From assembly GCA_963662665.2 (NCBI GenBank), contig CAXXJS010000016.1:66725-130724 (forward strand): a stretch of DNA of 64,000 bases, given 5' to 3'. A program made the position numbers and the translations under genes. Below the pieces are notes generated by a model. The model saw only the letters and a list, made by a program, of their open reading frames with translations. It was not told the origin of the DNA and did no database searches. Source of the stretch: Candidatus Latescibacterota bacterium. GTDB taxonomy: Bacteria; Latescibacterota; UBA2968; GCA-2709665. Shown in pieces: positions 11,542 through 46,780 of this stretch. Within the stretch, counting starts at the first letter, position 1. Each line of letters begins with the position of its first letter.

Positions 11542-12291
11542 CTACGGAGTCGTTCTCCCCCCATCCGCGCCGACCCGTCGTTCATCCGGCTTTCCGCCCG
11601 CCCCGCGGGAATCGGAGGCCGTTCCGGAATCGTCTTCGGAGCCGGCGCCGGGATTCCCCGCTTCCCCTTCCGGACGGGCTATGGCTTCCGGGAGGCCGCC
11701 TGGAGCAGACGCCGCGGCTGCTTTGTCGGCCAGTAACTCATCCAATTCCCTGACCTTTGGCAGATCCGACAACGTCTTCAGTCCGAAGTGCTTCAAGAAG
11801 TCCCGCGTCGTTCCGTAAAGCAGCGGCCTACCAGGGGCTTCCGACCGGCCTGCGATGCGGATCAATCCCTTCTCGAGCAGGTGCCGCAACACCCCGTCTA
11901 CAGACACCCCGCGTATGTGTTCCACCTCGGCCTTCATTACCGGCTGCTTGAATACGATGATGGCCAGCGTTTCCAGGGCTGCCGACGACAGGCGGACGGG
12001 CGCCTTGTCTTTCAGAAGACGCCGTATCCATGCTCCGTATTCCGAATGCACCAGGAACTGGAATCCGCCGGCGATTTCCGAGATTTTGAAGCTGCGCCCG
12101 GTCCTGCCGTATTGCTCGTTCAGATCTTCCACGTACGCACGCACGTCTCCTGGCCGCACACCATCCAGTATAGAAGCAATCTGGCTGGCGCCCAGCGGTC
12201 TGTCCGACGCCATCAATAACGCCTCGAGAATTCCCTGATTGCGCGCGTCTTCATCCGACGCGACCGCGTCTGTGCCATACGATTCGCGCAT
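11542..12291 (-). CDS. scpB: SMC-Scp complex subunit ScpB
   Basis: LSSAALETLAII, IRGV, PGRPLLYGTT..FL.HFGL..L.DLP. Confidence 0.95.
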   Translation of the reverse strand: MRESYGTDAVASDEDARNQGILEALLMASDRPLGASQIASILDGVRPGDVRAYVEDLNEQYGRTGRSFKISEIAGGFQFLVHSEYGAWIRRLLKDKAPVRLSSAALETLAIIVFKQPVMKAEVEHIRGVSVDGVLRHLLEKGLIRIAGRSEAPGRPLLYGTTRDFLKHFGLKTLSDLPKVRELDELLADKAAAASAPGGLPEAIARPEGEAGNPGAGSEDDSGTASDSRGAGGKPDERRVGADGGRTTP

Positions 12292-12375
12292 AGAAAGGAT
12301 ACAAGATCGGATTGAATTGCGGATCTCCGGAAGCAGCTTCGGGCTCGAGACGCCCGGCGAAAGGAGGTATCGGGC

Positions 12376-13179
12376 CTAACGTTCGGACGCCGGTTCCAAT
12401 CCAGGCCCTGTTTCATCCTCATCACTTCCGTAAACCCAGATTTCGCCTACCGAATCGCTCTGTCTGGCAACGGCCCGCCCGGCCTTGATCAGTTCAAGCA
12501 GGGCGATGAAAGTAACAATGAGGACGATTCGGGGCAGACCGGAAACCAGATCCGAGAACTGGACTCGACGCCTCTGTTCCAGTATGTCAAGTACGGCCTC
12601 CATTCGTTCTTCGGTTGTCACTTCCAGCTGATGCACGTCGTGGTAATCCGCGTCAGGCGCAGCAATGAGGGCCGTTTTGAACGACGCCATCAGATCGAAC
12701 AGACTCACCGAGCCATAGGTTGCCAACCGGTCCTGAACGACATCGTCGGTTTCTCCGGTATCCAGAGCGGCGCCCCGGTAAAATGAATCCCGATGTAACT
12801 CCTGTCTGTCTTCGAGCCAGTCGGCCACTTCCTTGAACTGCTGGTATTCCAGCAGACGCCGAACCAGTTCTTCCCGTGGATCCTCTTCATCCTCGTCTGC
12901 ATCAGGATCTGAGGGAAGCAACATGCGAGACTTGATCTTCATCAGGGTGGCCGCCATAACCAGAAAATCCCCGGCCGGCTCCAGATTGAGCGTCTGCATC
13001 ATTTCGACAAACTCCAGAAACTGCCGTGTGACGTCGGCGATGGGGATATCGTAAACGTCTATCTCGTCCTTGCGAATCAGAAAAAGCAGCAGATCCAGCG
13101 GTCCCTCGAAGACATCCAGCTTCACCCCGTAGGCGTCGCCCCCGCCGTTTCCCTGAAATACATGCGATTCAGCACGCAT
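12376..13179 (-). CDS. scpA: segregation and condensation protein A
   Basis: FEGPLDLLLFLI, FLVMAATLMKIKSRMLLP, TFIALLEL. Confidence 0.95.
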   Translation of the reverse strand: MRAESHVFQGNGGGDAYGVKLDVFEGPLDLLLFLIRKDEIDVYDIPIADVTRQFLEFVEMMQTLNLEPAGDFLVMAATLMKIKSRMLLPSDPDADEDEEDPREELVRRLLEYQQFKEVADWLEDRQELHRDSFYRGAALDTGETDDVVQDRLATYGSVSLFDLMASFKTALIAAPDADYHDVHQLEVTTEERMEAVLDILEQRRRVQFSDLVSGLPRIVLIVTFIALLELIKAGRAVARQSDSVGEIWVYGSDEDETGPGLEPASER

Positions 13180-13261: not shown

Positions 13262-13771
13262 TCAATCCATAAACAGATACGGCCGCCACCGCCGGTCCGG
13301 CACGCCGATCAGCTGGCTGATGGAGGTGACCGTGCTGGGCCTGCGAGGTCGGCGCAACAGATTGATGCCTGCCTGTTCCGGCGTCTGATTGCCCTTGAGG
13401 TTATTGCAGGGCAGACATGCGCACACCAGATTCTCCCAGGTGTCCCTTCCATTTCCGGTACGGGGAACCACATGGTCCACTGTCATCGGACCCTTCCGGG
13501 TACCACAATACTGGCACCGGTGTCCATCACGTTTCAGGACGTTTTTCTTTGAGAGTGCGAGTTGTTTGGGGGCCACGCGAACGTATAGCCCGAGACGTAC
13601 GACACTGGGAACCGGAAACCGCTCTGAAACCGTTCGCACATACAGATCCAGCGCCTCAATGACCTCTGCCCGCCCGCGAAACACGAGAACAATAGCCCGC
13701 CGTACGCTACACACCTGAATGGGTTCGTAACTCTGGTTCAGGACCAGAACCGGCCGGTTCAGCAATGGCAT
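13262..13771 (-). CDS. HNH endonuclease (McrA-like)
   Basis: VLVLNQSYEP, RD..RCQYCG, TVDHVVPR, WENLVCAC..CN..KG. Confidence 0.92.
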   Translation of the reverse strand: MPLLNRPVLVLNQSYEPIQVCSVRRAIVLVFRGRAEVIEALDLYVRTVSERFPVPSVVRLGLYVRVAPKQLALSKKNVLKRDGHRCQYCGTRKGPMTVDHVVPRTGNGRDTWENLVCACLPCNNLKGNQTPEQAGINLLRRPRRPSTVTSISQLIGVPDRRWRPYLFMD

Positions 13772-13895
13772 ACACCCCCTTTTACAACGGCCCGGGGCGA
13801 AGAAATCGAACGCGGCTGAATCCCTGCGCCTGCGCTGCAGATGTTCCGGCCCGTTACCGCCAACAGACCGGCTGTGCGCACCTGATTTTACCTAA

Positions 13896-14054
13896 CAGCC
13901 CGTTGAAAAAGTCCATCCGGGCTACGTCCGGCCCTTGTGGCCGAATTACTGCGTTGCACTCCCTCCCCGAATCCCCGATTCGACGCGGTCGCGCGCCTTG
14001 CCTTCGGTCACAATGGCTCGGCCTCGCCTGCAGAGCGACTTTTTCAACGGACTG
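13896..14054. mobile_element. MITE-like element with 18-bp terminal inverted repeats
   Basis: Left CAGCCCGTTGAAAAAGTC, right GACTTTTTCAACGGACTG (17/18 complementary); no credible ORF; related copy at 41374-41566. Confidence 0.7.
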
Positions 14055-14221
14055 CTGAAAAAATAAAGCCTCTATGAAACCATGTCAAGCGCGTACCACG
14101 CGCCGGCAATGAAAAACGGCAGGGTGGGGCCTCCCCGGTTCGGCGACCCATGGAGCGACCGTGAATATTCGGGTCATTGAGCCGCGGCCGATGATCGATC
14201 GACGCGTTGAGCGGGTTGCTA

Positions 14222-14605
14222 TCACTCTTCAATAAGTTCGCCGTAGGCCTGCGGGCTGAGAAGCGATTCGATTTCGTCGCCGCTGGTCAATCGTACCACG
14301 ATCATCCAGCCCTCACCGTATGGATCAGAGTTGATCAGAGCCGCATCCTCGCCAAGTTCCTCGTGAACCTCGAGCACTTCGCCCGAGACGGGTGCGAAGA
14401 GTTCCTCAACGGTCTTCACCGCCTCGATCGTCCCGAATGCCTCGCCCTGCTCGATCTGATCTCCCGGTTCCGGCAATTCGGCAAAGACGATATCGCCCAA
14501 CTCGCCCTGTGCGTAGTCTGTGATACCAATCGTGCCTCGTTCGCCCTCGATACGAATCCACTCGTGCTCTGCAGTGTACATGAGGCCTACCGGAATCTCC
14601 GACAT
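14222..14605 (-). CDS. gcvH: glycine cleavage system H protein
   Basis: HEW, GITDYAQGELGDIVF, lipoyl-Lys IEAVKT, NSDPYGEGW; start re-assigned to 14605. Confidence 0.96.
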   Translation of the reverse strand: MSEIPVGLMYTAEHEWIRIEGERGTIGITDYAQGELGDIVFAELPEPGDQIEQGEAFGTIEAVKTVEELFAPVSGEVLEVHEELGEDAALINSDPYGEGWMIVVRLTSGDEIESLLSPQAYGELIEE

Positions 14606-14706
14606 GATTGATGACTCCCGATTATAAAGAAAACCGATCTGTTGCGCCCGGGGGCGCTCGCCGACCCCACAGCTGTTACCGGAACGGTCAGGTGTCCGCC
14701 CGAATC

Positions 14707-16065
14707 TCAACCTCCATAACCTAATTTGACCACGAATTCCGTGTCGATTCGGCCAATTTGAAAATCAGAATGCCGCATTGCATCCAGATGAAATGGAATT
14801 GTTGTAGGGATTCCCTCGATCACGAATTCCTCGAGCGCTCGGACCATGCGCGCGGTTGCTTCCTCACGGGTGTCTCCGTACGCCAGCAGCTTGGCAAGTA
14901 GCGAATCGTAGTGTGAGGGGACGCGATAGCCGGCATATGCGTGTGAATCGATCCTGATGCCCGGTCCGCCCGGCGCATGAAACGTGCTGATTTCTCCCGC
15001 GGACGGCCGGAAGTTGTGATCGGGATCCTCAGCGTTAATGCGGCATTCGATGGCATGCCCCGAGGAATGTACGTCTTCCTGCGCAAACGGAAGCGGCTCT
15101 CCGGCCGCCACCCGAATCTGCGTCTTTACCAGATCGATTCCCGTCACCATCTCCGTGACCGGGTGTTCGACCTGAATGCGGGTATTCATTTCCAGAAAAT
15201 AGAAGCTGCCCGAAGCATCGAGCAGGAACTCCACGGTTCCGGCGCCTGAATAACCCACCGCCCTTGCCCCCGCAACGGCTTCTTTTCCCATCCGCGCGCG
15301 CAGGTCCTCGTCGACCACGGGCGAAGGAGACTCCTCGATCAGCTTCTGATGACGCCGCTGGATGGAACACTCGCGTTCACCCAGGTGGACGATGTTGCCG
15401 GCGTTGTCGCCCATAACCTGGATTTCCACGTGTCGTGGCGCCACGACTTCCTTCTCCATATAAAGCGTGCCCGACGTAAACGCGGCGGACGCCTCGGCCT
15501 GCGCCGCGTTCCAGGACCGCTCGAGGTCCTCCGCCTGGCTCACGGTGCGCATGCCCCTCCCGCCACCACCGGCAACCGCTTTCAGGCGAATCGGGTAACC
15601 GATCTCTTCGGCGGCCCGCTCCGCCTCATCGAGTGCGTGCAATACTCCGGTCCCGGGTGTTACCGGCACGTTTGCGGCCAGCATTGTCTCCCGCGCGACG
15701 GCTTTGTCTCCCATCCTGCGAATGGCCTCCGGCGACGGCCCGATGAACGCAATTCCGCACGAAGCGCACATTTCGGCAAAATCCGCGTTCTCTGCCAACG
15801 GACCGTACCCGGGGTGAATCGCATCGGCGTTGGTCACTTCCGCGGCGCTCAGAATTCGCGGGATGTTCCGGTAGCTCTGGTCTCCGGGAGGCGGCCCGAT
15901 GCAGACATCCTCGTCGGCAACGCCGATGTGCAGTGAATTGGCGTCGGCCTCGGAATGCACCGCGACTGTCCCGATACCAAGTTCCTTGCATGCCCGGATG
16001 ACACGCACGGCGATTTCGCCCCGGTCGGCAATAAGGATTTTATCGAATAAGGGAATGGATGACAC
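14707..16065 (-). CDS. accC: acetyl-CoA carboxylase biotin carboxylase subunit
   Basis: [43 protein letters not shown]. Confidence 0.96.
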
Positions 16066-40010: not shown

Positions 40011-40919
40011 ATGATCCCCCTCTTAAGCAGCCTGTGTTACGGATCGCTTGAAGTCTGCCAACTCCCCCGGACATGGTGGAAAGTCCTGCTCCGGAACGCG
40101 GGCATTCTCGACGAGGAATACCCCGACGTCAGTGAAGGACTGGACAAATCCGTCCTGGAAGTGCTGAATCTGGATAGAGAGACAACCCTGGCATATTTGC
40201 GGGAGAACATGCCCGACTACCTCCGGTTTGAGTCCTGGGTCCTCGGACAAAACGACAGAATGCTCGACCGAGAGGCAATCGAAACGTGGAACGAGTCCGT
40301 ACGCACCCGAATTCACACGCGACCCGATAAGCTCGAGGAAACCACGAACGACATCGGCATTCCCAACGACGGCGCGATCACTTCAGCTGTGGTCCTCAAC
40401 GGTCTCCAGGACTGGTCGCTATTCTACAGACGTGACTTGACGGAGGGATTTTCGGCCCCGGGCGGCCGCGTGGTGCCCCTCATCTCCAGCCTGGACTACG
40501 GCCCGCTAAACGTCTGCCAGCTCCCGCGTACGTGGCTGAAGATACTGCTCAGGTCCCGACGCCTGCTGCATCCCGACTATCCCGATATGACCGATAGCGG
40601 CCTGGACCCCCTCGCGCTGCGCGCCGTGAACGTCGAGCCGAACGACGCAGTACGTTTCATCCGGGACAACGCGCCCGCGTATCTCGACTTCGAAGCGTGG
40701 ATTCTCCGACAGAACGACGGAAGCGTCGACGGCGGCGCCGTCGAGGAGTGGAACGCCTTCGTGCGGAGGCGCATTCATTCAGATGAGAAGATCGTGGATA
40801 TTCACGATACACTGGGCCTGGAAAACGACGGCAGCCTGACCTCCGCGGTCGTTCTGAACCACGTTGAAGACTGGCACTTCGCGCACGCGGACCTGACGGG
40901 CCTGGGAACGGGTTCGTAA
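40011..40919 (+). CDS. tandem two-domain DUF5069-like protein
   Basis: Two homologous halves: PL.SSL.YG.L.VCQLPRTW.K...YPD...GLD...P.YL.FE.W...TSAVVLN...DW. Confidence 0.7.
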   Translation: MIPLLSSLCYGSLEVCQLPRTWWKVLLRNAGILDEEYPDVSEGLDKSVLEVLNLDRETTLAYLRENMPDYLRFESWVLGQNDRMLDREAIETWNESVRTRIHTRPDKLEETTNDIGIPNDGAITSAVVLNGLQDWSLFYRRDLTEGFSAPGGRVVPLISSLDYGPLNVCQLPRTWLKILLRSRRLLHPDYPDMTDSGLDPLALRAVNVEPNDAVRFIRDNAPAYLDFEAWILRQNDGSVDGGAVEEWNAFVRRRIHSDEKIVDIHDTLGLENDGSLTSAVVLNHVEDWHFAHADLTGLGTGS

Positions 40920-40972
40920 CGATCGGCAATCAACGCACGAAAATTCGGATACCTAACGAATCCAATTACAGG

Positions 40973-41001
40973 TTGACATTACCCGATCCACGGATTAAAC
41001 T
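40973..41001 (+). promoter_or_regulatory. sigma70-type promoter heading the WD40 locus
   Basis: TTGACA, 17 nt, TAAACT; second TATAAT at 41023-41028. Confidence 0.65.
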
Positions 41002-41134
41002 ATAGCTAAAGTTACGTATTAGTATAATTCTTCCGTGGAAGGTGCCCGCGTCGCCGATCTTCAAGGTGCGGCCGGGATCCCCAATGCCACCCGCGGTCAC
41101 GCGAAGGCGCCAGGCCCTGCATAAGCCCCGCAAG

Positions 41135-41360
41135 AAGTAATCGGCTGAACCTGTGGTTGACGCCATTCTCAAACCCGTTAGCGTTTGAAATGGAGGTGAT
41201 ACCGGAATCCACGTCGCCAAACGTTTTGCCGCTGTAGATATACGTGATAAACTGTAGATCGGGACAAGTGCTGAATTGATAGGTTGCGCTGTGTGAGTGA
41301 TAGAGCGATGCCGTCGGAATCCGTACATCCGGTTTTGTCATTTCGCCATCGCACCCTCCC
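41135..41360 (+). repeat. conserved non-coding leader, copy A
   Basis: Collinear with 43100-43322; shared blocks GTGGTT.ACGCC.TTC, GGAG.TGA.A...GAATCCAC.TCG..AAACGT.TT.CCG and CAAGTGCTGAA.TG. Confidence 0.8.
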
Positions 41361-41373
41361 GATCAATCCCCAT

Positions 41374-41566
41374 CAGTCCGTTGATAAAGTTGCTGTGACG
41401 GCGAGGCTCAGTGTCCCGTCCCGCGAAATTGTCTCCGTTCATCCGGCGATTCCCGCGGTCTGGCAGTGTTGCTTACGCTGTTTGTGTTGCCTGCACTGAG
41501 CTCGTCGAAGGGATACCAGCCAGCCGACTGGCGGCCGCAGACCGGATGGGCTTTTTCAACGTACCA
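41374..41566. mobile_element. MITE-like element (inverted relative of 13896-14054) with nested repeat and REP-like unit
   Basis: Ends CAGTCCGTTGATAAAGTTGCT... and ...CCGGATGGGCTTTTTCAACG match the reverse complement of the 13896 element; it interrupts a leader that is continuous in copy B. Confidence 0.65.
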
Positions 41567-41620
41567 CCTGGACCAATCAAGCACAGTCTCTTCCTATGTT
41601 TTTTCACAGTAACTTATCCC

Positions 41621-41970
41621 GTAATCGCATGAATCACGGTCCGTGGTGTGGCTGGAAGACGCGCTTTGCGTCTCAGTCTCAGTCATTCACGGTTATCGCG
41701 TGTATCACAGTCCGCCGAGTGGCTGGACGGCGCATCTTGCGTCTCAGTCTCAGTCATTCGCGGTAACCACGTGAATCACCGTCCGTGGTGTGGCCGGGCG
41801 GCGCCCCCTGCGCCCATATCCCGGTCAATTGCGTGAATCGCACACGAACCACAGTTCGGGGTGCGGTTCGGCGACGTGTCTTCCGCTTCAATTTCCAAGT
41901 AAATCAACATAATCACGGGCATCACGGTCCGGGTGCGGCTGAACGGCGTGCCCTGCGCTCGATTCTGCCC
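41621..41970. repeat. degenerate tandem array, ~71-bp period, about 5 units
   Basis: TTGCGTCTCAGTCTCAGTCATTC identical at 41666 and 41737; ATCAC.GTCCG motif at ~41633, 41704, 41775, 41922 and degenerate at ~41847. Confidence 0.8.
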
Positions 41971-42088
41971 GCTGATACCGGTACCCGCTGAACTCCAGTT
42001 GAGGGTGTGGCGGATCGGCGAGCCCTTGCTTAAATCACGGTTTACCGTCGTGATTCATATTGATTCATTGCCCAGGGAGGGTATCGAA

Positions 42089-42886
42089 ATGAAAAAAAAG
42101 CTGACGACTGTGAGTCTCATTCTTCTTTCTACAACTGTCTTGTTTGCACAGTTCGCCCACGCACAGGACTACAATCGCTGGAGCTTGCCCGAAGGCGCCC
42201 TCATGCGCCTCGGCAAAGGAGACGTGCGCGACGATGCCTGGTCGCCGGACGGAACGCTTCTGGCTTTCGGGGGCAGCCTCGGCATCTGGCTCTACGATGC
42301 CCGGACCGGGGCGGAAATTTCCCTGATCAAAGGACGTTCGTTCAGAGTCAATGGAGTTGCGTTTTCGCCCGATGGTCTCACGCTGGCAAGCGCCGGTAGT
42401 GACCGTACCGTGCGGCTGTGGGACATAGAAACGGGGCAGGAACTAAGCACCCTGGAAGGACATACCGACGACGTCGAGGCGGTGGCATTCTCTCCGGATG
42501 GGACGACGCTGGCAAGCGGCAGTCGTGACGGCACGGTGCGGGTGTGGGACGCGGCCACAGGGCAGAATATACGCGCCCTCAAAGGACATACCGATCCGAT
42601 CTGGTCGGTGGCGTTTTCACCGGACGGCAGGACCCTGGGAAGCGCCAGTTACGACTGTACGATTCTGCTGTGGGATGTCTCGTAACGTGCGGCATTGCAA
42701 CCCCTTGCTGCCGACTTCGATGGCGACGGGGCCGTGGGCTTTTCCGACTTTCTGCAATTCATCGCAGAGTACGGGCTGAGCTGGGGAGATGCGGGATATG
42801 ACGCGCGCTTCGACCTGGACGGCGACGGTGAGGTCGGTTCCCGCGATTGGTGGATCTTCGGAAAAATCTTCGGCCGGGGTACCTGA
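42089..42886 (+). pseudogene. exported WD40 protein with EF-hand/dockerin-like tail, short copy, in-frame TAA at 42683-42685
   Basis: GGGAGG RBS, signal peptide MKKKLTT..., 4 WD units; TAA where the paralogue has TCA, and the frame continues as ADFDGDGAVGFSDF... Confidence 0.8.
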
Positions 42887-43036
42887 GGCGGACTAACGGT
42901 GTCGGAAACAGGTCGCGCAAGGTCTGCATTAGGACCGGGAACCCACCCACTTCGGGCGGGTTTCCGGCATGAGAGTCAAATCCTTGCCGGACTCCTGTTT
43001 TGACATTCCATCCATCACCCAATCTGACAGCGTCCG

Positions 43037-43420
43037 GGAAGGAGGTAATATCGGAATCCACGCTGATAAACGTCTTTCCGTCGTACGTCTACTTACCAGA
43101 GGTGATCGGCAACAAGAGTGGTTAACGCCGTTCACGGACCCTACCGAATTTTGAAAGGAGATGACATATGAATCCACATCGTTAAACGTCTTACCGATTC
43201 ACGTTTGAGCGAAAAACCAGGTCTCGGAGCAAGTGCTGAACTGGCATGTTGAGCAACGGGAGCGGTAATATTGCCACGGACCAATGAACACCGGGTCCCT
43301 GCATATCGCCCCCACTCGCTCCATGTCATAACCGGAGCTACATCGATCACAGTCATTTCATGGTTTTAATCTGCCTTTAATCACATCGCAATCATAGTCA
43401 ATCACAGTCCGGGGGTACAG
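43037..43420 (+). repeat. conserved non-coding leader, copy B (two tandem 116-nt unit heads)
   Basis: GGAG..GAATCCAC heads at 43041 and 43157 (116 apart); homologous to 41135-41645 and 45476-45600. Confidence 0.8.
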
Positions 43421-45385
43421 ATGAAAAGGACAACAATTCTAAGTCTATTGCTTCCTTTTGCGGCAGTCCTATATGCACACGACAGTGTTGCACAGGACTA
43501 CAATCGCTGGCGTCTGCCCGAAGGCGCCCGCATGCGGCTGGGCAAAGGCAACGTGCTCGACGTGGCGTAGTCACCGGACCGCACGCTCCTGGCCGTGGGG
43601 GGCACGGCAGGCATCTGGCTCTATGATGCCCATACAGGGGCCGAAGTTTCCCTGATCACAGGACATTCGTTCAGAGTCAATGCCGTTACATTTTCGCCCG
43701 ATGGTCTGACGCTGGCAAGTGGCAGCCGGGACGATACGGTGCGGCTGTGGGACGTGGAAACCGGGCAGGAAAAGAGCATCCTCACGGGACATACCTACGA
43801 CGTGGAGGCGGTGGCATTCTCGCCGGATGGGACGACGGTGGCAAGCGGCAGTCGTGACGGCACGGCGCGGGTGTGGGACGAAGAAACCGGGCAGGAGAAA
43901 AGCACCCTCGTCAATGAAAAGTACCGGGGTCGGTCGAATAACCCATGGGTCATGTCGGTGGCGTATTCGCCCGATGGGGCGACGCTGGCCAGCGCCAGCC
44001 GGGACAGTACCGTGCGGGTGTGGGACGTGGAAACCGGGCAGGAAATACACACACTCACGGGACATACCCATGGGGTCTGGTCGGTGGCGTTTTCGCCGGA
44101 CGGCAGGACCCTGGCCAGTGGGAGTGGGGACAATACGGTACGGTTGTGGGACGTGGAAACGGGACAGGAAAAGAACACCCTGGAAGGACATACCCATTGG
44201 TTGTATTCGGTGGTGTTTTCGCCCGATGGAGCGACGCTGGCTAGCGCCAGCCGGGACAGTACCGTGCGGGTGTGGGACGCGGCCACAGGGGCTGAGATAA
44301 GCACCCTCACAGGGCATAGTTCCAGCGTCCGGTCGGTTGGGTATTCGCCGGATGGGATGACCCTGGCGAGCCGCAGTATCGACAATACAGTCAGGTCGTG
44401 GGACGTGGAAACGGGGCAGGAGAAAAGCGCCATCACCCTCACAGGGCATACCCAATCTGTAAATTCGGTCGCGTTTTCGCCGGATGGGACGATGCTGGCA
44501 AGTGGCGGTAACGAGCGCACGGTTCGGTTGTGGGACGTGGCCACCGGGCTGGATATACGCACCTTCACAGGACATACCCGTGGGATCCTTTCGGTGGCGT
44601 TCTCGCCGGATGGGACGACCCTGGCAAGCGGTGGCGGCTATCGCGACGCAACGGTGCGGTTGTGGGACGTGGACACAGGGCAGGAGAAAGACACCCTCAC
44701 GGGACATACGGCGTCTGTCGAGTCGGTGGCGTTCTCGCCGGATGGGTCCACGCTGGCAAGCGCCGGCGGTCGAGACGAAACGGTGCGGTTGTGGGACGCG
44801 GCCACCGGGCATGAGGAACATACCCTAACAGGACATGCGTCGACCGTCTCGTGGGTGGCGTTTTCGCCCGATGGATCGACGCTGGCAAGCGCCAGTTACG
44901 ACCATACGGTGAGGTTGTGGGAAGCGGCCACAGGGCACGAGAAAAACACCTTCACAGTACGTGGAGAGAATTTCTTTTCGGTGGCGTTTTCGCCGGATGG
45001 AAAGACGCTGGCAACCAGCAGTCCGCATAAGGCGGTATGGCTGTGGGACGTGGCCACAGGGCAGAATATACGCGCCCTCAGAGGACATACCGATCCGATC
45101 TGGTCGGTGGCGTTTTCGCCGGACGGCAGGACCCTGGCAAGCGCCAGTTACGACGGTACGATTCTGCTGTGGGACGTCTCGTCACGTGCGGCATTGCAAC
45201 CCCTTGCTGCCGACTTCGATGGCGACGGGGCCGTGGGCTTTTCCGACTTTCTGCAATTCATCGCAAAGTACGGGCTGAGCTGGGGAGATGCGGGATATGA
45301 CGCGCGCTTCGACCTGGACGGCGACGGTGAGGTCGGATCCCGCGATTGGTGGATCTTCGGAAAAAGCTTCGGCCGGGGTACGTGA
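43421..45385 (+). pseudogene. exported WD40 protein (about 13 units) with EF-hand/dockerin-like tail, in-frame TAG at 43568-43570
   Basis: ATG 43421 signal peptide MKRTTIL..., QDYNRW.LPEGA.MRLGKG as in the paralogue; TAG at codon 50 aligns with TGG of copy 1; same frame as the 43595 ORF. Confidence 0.85.
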
Positions 45386-45475
45386 AGCGAACGCGCCGTG
45401 TCAGTAGGAAGCCACGCCAGGCGATCGGCAGTGAATGCGATATAGGGCGCTGACATACCTGCCCGCGCGTGGAGA

Positions 45476-45601
45476 GGAGGTGATACTGGAATCCACGTCG
45501 CTAGAAGTTTCGACGCTTTACGTCTATTTGTAGACGATAGTCGGCTGCAATACCGATCCACGCCGATCACCCTGTTGTCCACGTTTGGAAAGGAGTTGAA
45601 A
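45476..45601 (+). repeat. conserved leader unit, copy C, ending in the real RBS
   Basis: GGAGGTGATACTGGAATCCACGTCG...TACGTCTA...TCGGC..CAA...ACGCCG.TCAC...GAAAGGAG; the second GGAG is 116 nt after the first. Confidence 0.75.
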
Positions 45602-46780
45602 GTGAACACGGAAGACCTTAGAGAAAGATTGGAAGCTCTGGAAGAAAGGCTGCGATGGCAGAAGCGGACAATTGCGGGATTGCTCGTTGTCTTCCTATTC
45701 AGCGCGTCGCCCGCATTGACCCAGGCATCAAAGTGGTTTGACCGGATCCTTCCGTCAAAGCTGACCTCGTTAAGCCTTCAACACGTCACGGACCGGGGCG
45801 ACGTGCGGTTTGACGACCTCTCGCCGATCGGGGCGGAACTTCCATTACCGGAGACCGGATACGGTGGACCGAGCAAGATCGCTTCGGGGCAACCCCTAAA
45901 TGCCGCCGATACGCTGCGGGTGGGTGCAGTTCACATTATTAACGCAAGCGGGGCGCTCGTCGCGACCGTCGGGTCTAGTCAGTCCGGAAGCGGTTTGCTC
46001 GAGGTACGGAACAGCAATGGCGACCGCGTGTCGATTGTGGGCGTGGATTCGCGGGGACACGGCACCCTGGGGGTCCTCAACGCGGCCGGTCGCGTCACCG
46101 CCGCCATAGGCGCCGACCGGTCGGAACAAGCCAACGGAGTGGTCGACGTCAAGAGTGCAAAGGGTTCGGCGGCCGCACTCGCCTTTGACGATGCCGGGGA
46201 TGGGGCGATTGGCGTGTTCAACACGGACAAAAGGCTGGTTTCCGGATTCGGTATCGACAACAACGGTCACGGCGCCCTTCGTATCGTAAATGCGGCGGGC
46301 GGGGTTGTTGCCGCGATAGGTGCCGATCAGTCCGACGACGCCAATGGGTGGATGGATGTCAGGAACAAATCAGGGCCGGCTGCGGGCTTCTCCGTCGACA
46401 CGGACGGAGACGGCCTGGTCATCGCAGGCAATCGGAACAACGATGAGGTTTCGATTATGGGCGCGAATGAAAACGGGCACGGCATCATCGGGTTCAAGCA
46501 CGCTTCCGGGCGGGTTGTGGTCGGCATGGGCGCCGATTCGACCGGCGCCGGCGTGCTGAACGTCGAAGGCGGCAGGTTTCGGGCCTTTCTCGATGCGGAA
46601 GGCAACGGAGTCGCGAAAACACTGGGACAGCATGGGAATCTTCTCTGGTCGTCCGAAGCTTCCCCCAACGGTGATGGCGGCACGTCAACCGGGCTGATCG
46701 GCGACTTCGATGGCAACGGCAAGGTGGATTTCGCGGACTTTGTGACCTTCGCCGCGAATTTCGGCAAAACGAGCGGGTAA
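45602..46780 (+). CDS. membrane-anchored Gly-rich repeat protein with a C-terminal EF-hand/dockerin-like motif
   Basis: GTG 45602 after AAGGAG; coiled coil, TM segment, ~22-aa G.L.V.N..G..V..G.D..G.G repeats, GDFDGNGKVDFADF. Confidence 0.75.
   Translation: MNTEDLRERLEALEERLRWQKRTIAGLLVVFLFSASPALTQASKWFDRILPSKLTSLSLQHVTDRGDVRFDDLSPIGAELPLPETGYGGPSKIASGQPLNAADTLRVGAVHIINASGALVATVGSSQSGSGLLEVRNSNGDRVSIVGVDSRGHGTLGVLNAAGRVTAAIGADRSEQANGVVDVKSAKGSAAALAFDDAGDGAIGVFNTDKRLVSGFGIDNNGHGALRIVNAAGGVVAAIGADQSDDANGWMDVRNKSGPAAGFSVDTDGDGLVIAGNRNNDEVSIMGANENGHGIIGFKHASGRVVVGMGADSTGAGVLNVEGGRFRAFLDAEGNGVAKTLGQHGNLLWSSEASPNGDGGTSTGLIGDFDGNGKVDFADFVTFAANFGKTSG

Follow-up and report, generated by a model that had tools for sequence, protein, structure and literature searches.

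The closest described counterpart of the element treated here is the stabilizing Shine-Dalgarno (SD) sequence, STAB-SD, of the Bacillus thuringiensis cry3A gene, which pairs with the 3' end of 16S rRNA and, as described in PMC4113751, holds a 30S subunit that blocks the 5'-to-3' exonuclease RNase J1. Related polypurine stabilizers at the 5' ends of Bacillus mRNAs, those of SP82, ermC, aprE, gsiB and hbs, are described in PMC2358910. Here we describe a repeated non-coding module in a 64,000-nt stretch of a Candidatus Latescibacterota genome (contig CAXXJS010000016.1, positions 66,725 to 130,724; hereafter the window), where it resides in the spacers of an array of genes for secreted proteins with WD40 repeats and dockerin/EF-hand tails. 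Each copy contains an SD-like head. Two forms of the module exist, a long one (L) and a short one (S); in the window, copies A and C are of type L and copies B and D of type S, and C follows B directly. We propose, with a probability of about 0.4, that the module is a non-initiating 30S-binding leader element that would work like STAB-SD. The likeness concerns the mode of action, and membership in the STAB-SD group itself is not claimed.

Like STAB-SD, the module offers an SD sequence complementary to 16S rRNA in an upstream spacer, far from the real start and mostly without a start codon of its own, in a genome that encodes RNase J. Unlike STAB-SD, it comes in repeats, each long spacer of the array containing one or two copies, its complementarity is longer (12-13 nt), and it is embedded in a conserved setting of about 116-165 nt that contains a second invariant block, GGAATCCAC. 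Further differences are that its head is predicted to be paired and not open and that the host belongs to the Latescibacterota. Ribosome standby sites, such as that of the tisB leader, are described as unstructured and not SD-based. The module resembles them in lying upstream of a weak real ribosome binding site (RBS; median -11.6 kcal/mol), where a 30S subunit could wait, but its head is SD-based, predicted to be paired and 253-279 nt away from the start codon. Internal SD-like pause motifs within translated open reading frames (ORFs) reportedly act on elongating ribosomes; the module is likewise SD-like and would engage the anti-SD without initiation, but it lies in non-coding spacers. In the variable lipoprotein loci of mycoplasmas, conserved 5' regions are common to tandem surface-protein paralogues. 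Here, too, a conserved upstream block was duplicated with each family member, but there is no sign of phase variation or of a recombinase and the core is an anti-SD complement. Miniature inverted-repeat transposable elements (MITEs) are also short non-coding repeats; unlike these, the module is undispersed and stands at fixed distances from the flanking genes. In the literature outside subscription journals, no such element was found for Latescibacterota. The module is set apart from the descriptions that were found by its repeated modular form, by the 12-13-nt complementarity, by an anti-SD-like partner in one class of copies (class I, see below) and by the phylum. If the heads bind 30S subunits without initiation, this would be a STAB-SD-type case beyond Gram-positive bacteria and, to our knowledge, the first repeated modular one, with the element at each transcription unit of an array of genes. 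If the module acts at the DNA level or is a relic, its interest would remain local. WD40 and other eukaryote-like repeat proteins have been discussed for sponge-associated Latescibacterota and Poribacteria, and the module may show how arrays of secreted WD40/dockerin proteins are expressed in an uncultured genus of the former phylum.

The pattern GGAGRTRAYANNNGAATCCAC occurs on the plus strand at positions 41192, 43041, 43157 and 45476 of the window with at most one mismatch, as an earlier note on this DNA had reported, and it was found in none of 100 dinucleotide shuffles of the window. A repeat finder united the same four places in one 67-nt repeat family (64-75% identity to the reference copy), and an nhmmer profile built from the four copies retrieved only these four across the whole 4.86-Mb genome. 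A first collection comprised 43 non-redundant copies, the four of the window plus 39 from elsewhere. The final set consists of 61 non-redundant copies from 12 genomes or records of the same genus, all but one of them situated inside the syntenic array, and the suggestion that a conserved, unannotated non-coding module accompanies the secreted WD40/dockerin family is borne out by this set. The head GGAGGTGAT is exact in 39 of the 61 copies, has one mismatch in 17, two in four and four in a single copy. Among 60 distinct copies, the best-kept window of 12 columns is AAGGAGGTGATA, with a mean majority fraction of 0.925 compared with 0.687 overall, a score that none of 20000 column shuffles reached. 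A second well-kept block, GGAATCCAC, follows the head.

The 16S rRNA of the genome (Rfam RF00177, 1576 bits) ends ...GGATCACCTCCTTTCTA, and the consensus head, (G)AAAGGAGGTGAT, is a perfect 12-13-nt complement of this 3' tail. The uninterrupted complementarity of the individual copies is 11 nt at the median, at least 11 nt in 35 of 61 copies and 13 nt in 18. The predicted duplex between head and anti-SD has a median energy of -22.6 kcal/mol, to be compared with a median of -11.6 kcal/mol for the real RBSs of 17 WD40 genes and with -5.5 kcal/mol for 2000 random 20-mers from the genome, the minimum of the latter being -17.9 kcal/mol. Exact matches to AAGGAGGTGAT number 36 in four near-complete (98-100%) genomes of the genus, and 20 of these lie within the arrays of about 30 kb. 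A 13-nt anti-SD complement followed by GGAATCCAC can serve as a practical marker. The part of the earlier interpretation that spoke of ribosome standby or decoy sites appears a reasonable reading in view of a head that complements the genome's own 16S tail over 12-13 nt.

A full spacer of the array consists, in this order, of the stop codon, a GC-rich hairpin-forming stretch, an L unit, which an S unit may precede, a conserved proximal part some 140 nt long that carries AATCAY repeats, a weak real RBS and the ATG (Table 1). The first head stands 148-154 nt from the stop of the preceding gene where the flank belongs to class I and 81-90 nt from it in class II flanks. At the other end, 17 of the 27 L copies lie 253-279 nt upstream of the ATG of the next WD40 gene (for unit C, there are 267 nt from the AAAGGAGG block to the ATG of gene 2), another six stand at 760-1168 nt, five of these in first spacers that bear insertions, and four were not assigned by the pattern. 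S heads precede the next head by 110-119 nt in 16 tandems and by exactly 116 nt in nine. The period of 116 nt that had been noticed from heads 43041 and 43157, and again from head 45476 and the GGAG at 45592, is correct for both pairs and holds for the S-to-L tandem, but not as a period of all copies. Between some adjacent WD40 genes the spacer is short and contains no unit. The unit belongs to a larger spacer block, about 360 or 540 nt long, that was duplicated together with the genes. The GC-rich stretch is a possible terminator. The best promoter candidate for the array is TTGACA-17-TAAACT, which is located outside the unit and of which both hexamers are kept in three species, with a variable intervening spacer.

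ATG, GTG or TTG at 4-12 nt past GGAGG is missing in 39 of the 61 copies, including three of those in the window, and the copy at 43157 yields nothing but ATG-AAT-CCA-CAT-CGT-TAA (MNPHR*), in both respects as previously stated. Control by an upstream ORF had also been considered in the earlier note. In this reading, the head would be the RBS of a leader peptide ORF of about 25 codons, started at TTG, whose translation controls the downstream gene. In its favor, TTG, ATG or GTG follows GGAGG at 5-6 nt in 22 of 61 copies, and seven of these give an ORF of 24-25 codons, several ending at a recurrent TGA. However, the number of copies with a start is about what chance predicts (about 0.35 per copy by our own estimate), ORF lengths vary from 5 to 77 codons and the ATG of copy C is out of frame with the TTG of other copies. 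Codon periodicity is not apparent either: in the plus frame behind the head the third codon position is the least variable one (entropy 0.571 versus 0.622 and 0.664). This explanation is therefore improbable.

Even less credit can be given to a decayed or real coding sequence, be it on the minus strand (GKTFxDVDSxITS) or on the plus strand (MRVKSL...). A decayed minus-strand gene was first suspected because of the shared peptide GKTFxDVDSxITS; the minus-strand translations are alike across copies, and copy A lies within a 109-codon ORF (41012-41341). The earlier statement that the translated frames contain stops is true for all six frames of the four units with the exception of this minus-strand ORF over copy A. 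The suspicion was ruled out by phase, orthologue and protein-search tests. Minus-strand column entropy is flat with regard to phase (0.955, 0.947, 0.963), and every frame is open in at most 16 of 27 L and 10 of 16 S copies. When copy A is compared among four orthologues, 24, 30 and 34 variable columns fall at codon positions 1, 2 and 3, and in the minus frame one orthologue is frameshifted and one contains a stop. The reading frames of the units matched no Pfam family, and a search with the minus-strand ORF among 5.8 billion proteins returned only five partial ORFs, 84-89% identical and free of Pfam domains, and no distant relative. On the plus strand, an ATG lies 72 nt before the head, in one frame, in 8 of 16 class I copies, but in this second ORF it is codon position 1 that varies most (0.811 versus 0.631 and 0.643). 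Small plus-strand ORFs were rejected on account of missing starts, variable lengths and codon-position variability. Coding tests were thus negative on both strands, and the decayed gene that the earlier note had named as a competing outcome was not found.

Tests for conserved RNA structure were equally negative. An Rfam search of positions 40800-45800 on both strands, carried out to E = 1, gave no credible match; the only entry returned was a viral element with E = 0.16 and 22 bits compared with a gathering score of 100. The covariation that would have supported the earlier interpretation did not appear: RNAalifold predicts no consensus structure, with 0 pairs for the 27 L copies and five weak pairs with 0 compensatory changes for the 16 S copies, and in a consensus fold of the whole spacer the covariation term is unfavorable on both strands. 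The complementarity TCGGC-N16-GCCG, formerly taken for an internal stem, is present, but it bridges the junction of two successive units, with one arm at the 3' end of the first and the other at the 5' end of the second. As a conserved structure it fails, since 76.7% of cells are paired with 0 double (compensatory) changes, and equal or better pairing was reached by 476 of 500 shuffles. The class I consensus inverted repeat, ATTCCATCGATCACC ... GGTGATATCGGAAT, can pair in 79.8% of cells versus 78.6% after shuffling (89 of 500 shuffles as high), and its covariation score is equalled by 46 of 500 shuffles. For the GC-rich hairpin about 50 nt past the stop the values are 79.8% and 79.7%, without significant covariation. 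All three of these helices, drawn by hand, can form in the consensus, none of them with covariation support.

In folds of single sequences, a frequent partner of the head is GATCACC on its upstream side (class I) or a GTCGCC-like stretch on its downstream side. In class I spacers (e.g., 43006-43069), the left arm of the inverted repeat holds GATCACC, which matches a part of the 16S 3' tail, 22-27 nt upstream of the head, and this copy of the tail and the SD-like head facing it make up an internal SD/anti-SD pair, again without covariation support. A structured cis-regulatory RNA, for example a riboswitch, a thermometer or an attenuator-like element, in which such an anti-SD-like partner sequesters the head, would agree with the usual pairing of the head in these folds, with the ability of GATCACC to pair with GGTGAT in class I and with the 76.7% of cells in which the junction stem can form. 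Nevertheless, we consider it very unlikely, as consensus folding gave no pairs for L and only uncompensated ones for S, the class I hairpin and the junction stem are no better than shuffles, covariation is unfavorable in the whole-spacer fold and Rfam holds no credible match. A related scheme, a ribosome-capture switch, appears similarly unlikely: the copy of the 16S tail in class I would pair with the 13-nt head, free 30S subunits would compete for it, and the array would possess a sensor of ribosome availability. One or two traps per spacer would then tie survival or translation of the mRNA of the WD40 array to the pool of free ribosomes. We know of no description of a ribosome-availability sensor of this kind.

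The module is under selective constraint, as is evident both from the uneven conservation of its columns and from the comparison of orthologues. Orthologous unit A is identical at 154/164, 154/164 and 156/164 positions in three species, while four-fold sites of the adjacent conserved gene are identical at 110/144, 93/136 and 106/142 (68-76%), the Fisher p values being 1e-5, 6e-9 and 4e-7. Unit A is also the best-kept segment of its spacer. Identity falls to 0.82-0.89 in the segment that immediately precedes it, and unit A is significantly better conserved than the adjoining spacer in two of three pairs (p = 0.001 and 0.047; third pair 0.12). Some caution is advisable because the neighboring MITE is identical at 173/173 positions between two of the related genomes, G007 and G013, so that these two species may recently have undergone exchange there.

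These data bear on the notion that the module is a hitch-hiking relic without present function, left over from the RBS and leader at the start of an ancestral gene, copied in tandem and homogenized by gene conversion. Fixed distances to the upstream stop (148-154 or 81-90 nt) and to the ATG (253-279 nt) are the pattern of block duplication, units occur nowhere else in the genome, both WD40 genes of the window are broken and covariation was not found, all of which would suit a relic. On the other hand, shared descent and gene conversion do not produce uneven column conservation that peaks at the head (0 of 20000 shuffles), and orthologous unit A is conserved far above four-fold sites and, in two of three pairs, above the adjoining spacer. 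We therefore regard a relic as unlikely. Given a constrained core that is the anti-SD complement, together with the missing conserved start and the lack of any coding or structural signal, contact with the 30S subunit at the RNA level is suggested.

A serious rival to the 30S-binding leader is a site that acts at the DNA level, although we consider it less than probable. The head and GGAATCCAC, in class I together with the inverted partner, would then form a protein-bound operator, an upstream activating site or a promoter element, and tandem S and L sites about 116 bp, i.e. about 11 helical turns, apart would permit looping. Several features agree with this idea. Most class I heads are preceded, at a distance of about 41 nt, by TTGACA or a close variant of it, and CTGACA-16-TAATAT overlaps head B, the only copy that scores in a scan for sigma-70 hexamers. 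The class I repeat with 79.8% pairable cells is an inverted repeat, heads follow each other at 110-119 nt in 16 tandems and at 116 nt in nine, covariation at the RNA level was not found, AATCAY direct repeats with a spacing of 10-11 nt lie near the RBS and an ORF for an OmpR-type regulator adjoins the end of the array in G013. However, the most conserved stretch complements the anti-SD over 12-13 nt, which would be a coincidence in a protein-binding site, and at gene 3 of this very genome a head serves as RBS. By eye, the TTGACA of class I lacks a -10-like hexamer at the right distance, and the T at the end of the would-be -10 element is among the less conserved columns. The spacing, finally, may simply equal the length of the duplicated unit. 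Promoter consensus sequences for sigma-54, sigma-28 and extracytoplasmic function sigma factors were also compared by eye with the module consensus and did not fit.

For the favored reading, a non-initiating 30S-binding leader element, anatomy, distribution, complementarity, constraint and the lack of a coding or structural signal are established. The spacer would be transcribed within the leader of each WD40 gene or in a polycistronic transcript of the array, and the head would bind a 30S subunit without starting translation. The parked subunit could shield the downstream message, for example from the 5'-to-3' exonuclease RNase J; alternatively, it might constitute a local ribosome store or a decoy. 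That the head is transcribed, that it binds 30S subunits and that the message is thereby affected are steps that we infer. An RNase J homologue is encoded in the genome; it scores 385.8 bits compared with an NCBIfam cut-off of 400, while its domains RNase_J_b_CASP, RMMBL and RNase_J_C are above the Pfam cut-offs. Gene 3 provides a natural experiment. The GGAG at 45592 is the RBS of a 392-codon ORF that opens with the GTG at 45602, 6 nt further on, as had been recognized earlier, and belongs to a partial L unit (45557-45601) that matches model positions 3-48 with E = 3.1e-6 in a search of 837 nt with a profile built without the window copies. In the same type of profile search, the coding part of gene 3 showed no homology to the L unit past model position 48. 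An L head thus acts as RBS of an intact gene here, while the orthologue in another genome of the genus, G009, has a different upstream region. Since the L head is the RBS of gene 3, its position would be transcribed there and able to act as a true SD, and by homology with gene 3 the L heads in the other spacers are presumably transcribed as well.

Several findings weigh against a 30S-binding leader. The heads are distant from the ATG, 253-279 nt for L and about 380 nt for S. Start codons do occur in 22 of the 61 copies, mostly TTG at a spacing of 5 and opening ORFs of 5-77 codons. Conservation of GGAATCCAC and 94-95% orthologous identity across 164 nt go beyond what SD pairing alone would require, and three features, namely the TTGACA box, the inverted repeat of class I and the head spacing of about 11 helical turns, would fit a DNA site no less readily. 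In the accounts given in PMC4113751 and PMC2358910, elements of the STAB-SD type are described for Gram-positive bacteria, a setting other than this phylum. In addition, the 9-nt head is predicted to be unpaired with a median probability of 0.001, while the mean with shuffled flanks is 0.015; only 18% of the 61 copies attain the shuffled mean with their native flanks (Wilcoxon p = 6e-7). The native flanks are thus predicted to leave the head less accessible than shuffled ones do, which does not agree with an open standby site. A CsrA sponge or a leader that binds CsrA/RsmA via GGA motifs was ruled out as another RNA-level function. The family PF02599 (CsrA) had no match in the genome of the window (G000, 92% complete; the other G labels denote related genomes) or in three genomes of the genus that are 99-100% complete, while control searches matched in three known carriers.

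In order to trace the module among relatives, a 407-nt query comprising units B and C was used. It matched in 14 of 41 related genomes including G000, namely in 12 of the 14 other genomes of the genus and, with a single weak match of 24 nt, in another genus of the family; none of the 19 genomes of the neighboring family gave a match. In G007, G009, G010, G012 and G013 the units reside in a syntenic locus between a gene for a conserved 302-aa protein and a gene for a conserved 257-aa protein. This locus is a tandem array of up to about ten genes, whose WD40/dockerin products measure about 690 aa and all carry a signal peptide. When the 302-aa protein served as query, 74 loci were returned, inspected up to 10 kb on either side. 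Units were present in ten of them, all with at least 84% identity of the 302-aa protein, and absent from the remaining 64. The titles of the 74 loci name Candidatus Latescibacterota, with some labelled Gemmatimonadota or Poribacteria. A metagenome scan with a 21-mer, which possibly did not include records very near the genome of the window, returned five matches confined to the motif (13.5-16.3 bits, model positions 38-59). These five loci lack homology to the unit, four of them hold open frames of more than 150 codons, and all five are read as chance matches. As far as these sequence comparisons reach, the module is restricted to one genus of Latescibacterota. The end of a MITE or of an insertion sequence, named earlier as a possible identity of the repeats, was rejected: the four units of the genome are confined to one locus and not dispersed, they lack terminal inverted repeats and target duplications, and their distances to the genes are fixed.

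At the end of the array in G013 (locus L012), an ORF for an OmpR-like response regulator (11622-12293, minus strand) diverges from an L unit at 12445 (plus strand), and the latter precedes a 546-aa ORF unrelated to WD40 proteins (13282-14922, plus strand). This arrangement shows that the link between unit and WD40 genes is not a strict one. Of the spacer, the RBS-proximal part alone (about positions 270-400 of the query) also matches other loci, G013:C1:1582276-1588628, 1120909, 2384857 and 4321847 as well as several places in G011, and may be common to further gene arrays.

Table 1 Features of the module-bearing locus in the window (positions count from the first nucleotide of the window).
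Feature	Coordinates	Strand	Remarks
Promoter-like TTGACA-17-TAAACT	40973..41001	+	Upstream of first spacer, after the 302-aa gene; 10 of 12 consensus matches
Unit A, L type, first spacer	41151..41314	+	Head GGAGGTGAT at 41192-41200; second block GGAATCCAC at 41204-41212
Gene 1	42089..42886	+	Signal peptide, WD40 repeats, in-frame TAA at 42683-42685, then in-frame dockerin/EF-hand tail
GC-rich hairpin-forming stretch	42935..42967	+	About 50 nt past the stop of gene 1; in class I spacers
Unit B, S type, class I flank	43000..43115	+	TTGACA at 43000-43005; left arm ATTCCATCCATCACC
Blocks of unit B		+	Head GGAGGTAAT at 43041-43049; GGAATCCAC at 43053-43061
Unit C, L type	43116..43279	+	Head GGAGATGAC at 43157-43165
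Proximal conserved half of spacer	43280..43420	+	AATCAY repeats from 43379, 43390 and 43400; real RBS GGGGGT
Gene 2	43421..45385	+	Signal peptide, TAG at 43568-43570 after 49 codons, 12 WD40 stretches, dockerin/EF-hand tail
Unit D, S type, class II flank	45435..45556	+	Head GGAGGTGAT at 45476-45484
Partial L unit, first ~46 nt	45557..45601	+	Head GGAG at 45592 is the working RBS of gene 3
Gene 3	45602..46780	+	392 aa; unrelated N-terminal part, EF-hand/dockerin-like tail

Three exported genes with EF-hand tails had been described for this part of the window, but two of them, genes 1 and 2, are interrupted by in-frame stops. Both stops are due to single bases, TAA in gene 1 corresponding to TCA in gene 2 and TAG in gene 2 to TGG in gene 1. 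The stretches with both stops and units B and C are free of differences in contigs of two other runs, X1 and X2, which may, however, include the source sample. Gene 1 is a truncated derivative of the family, the last 300 nt being 96% identical to gene 2. Genes 1 and 2 are probably pseudogenes in this species, while relatives keep intact genes for proteins of about 690 aa. Upstream of the gene 3 orthologue in G009 (locus L013, 10379-10505, compared with 45386-45601 of the window), the proximal half of the WD40 spacer and an own AAAGGAGG are found. The difference between the two genomes is consistent with a deletion between two AAAGGAG sites. Gene 3, with a leader SD turned into a true RBS by such a deletion, would show how recruitment of this kind can occur.

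AATCAY direct repeats, three to five in number and 10-11 nt apart, are located directly upstream of the real RBS at 43379-43405 in the window and in 16 other spacers. A direct-repeat layout of this type is typical of sites for winged-helix response regulators. Searched genome-wide, the strict triple pattern had a single match in G000, which is the locus itself, and the triple was ruled out as the mark of a genome-wide regulon.

The first spacer is lengthened by a MITE (41373-41565) and by 71-nt tandem repeats (41621-41833). The MITE-like family accounts for 77 blastn hits in the genome; its terminal inverted repeats read about CAGTCCGTTGAWAAAGTCGC ... GACTTTTTCAACGGGCTG, copies are often flanked by TA or TTA, and there are several internal subfamilies. 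The copy at 41373-41565 is common to the first spacers of G007 and G013. The 71-nt tandem repeats, absent from the corresponding place in these two genomes, comprise three copies with 70-82% identity to the reference copy, and degenerate copies continue to about 42060. Each repeat begins with AATCAC..GTCCG, resembling the RBS-proximal part of the WD40 spacers, and contains a small hairpin, GACGCGCTTTGCGTC.

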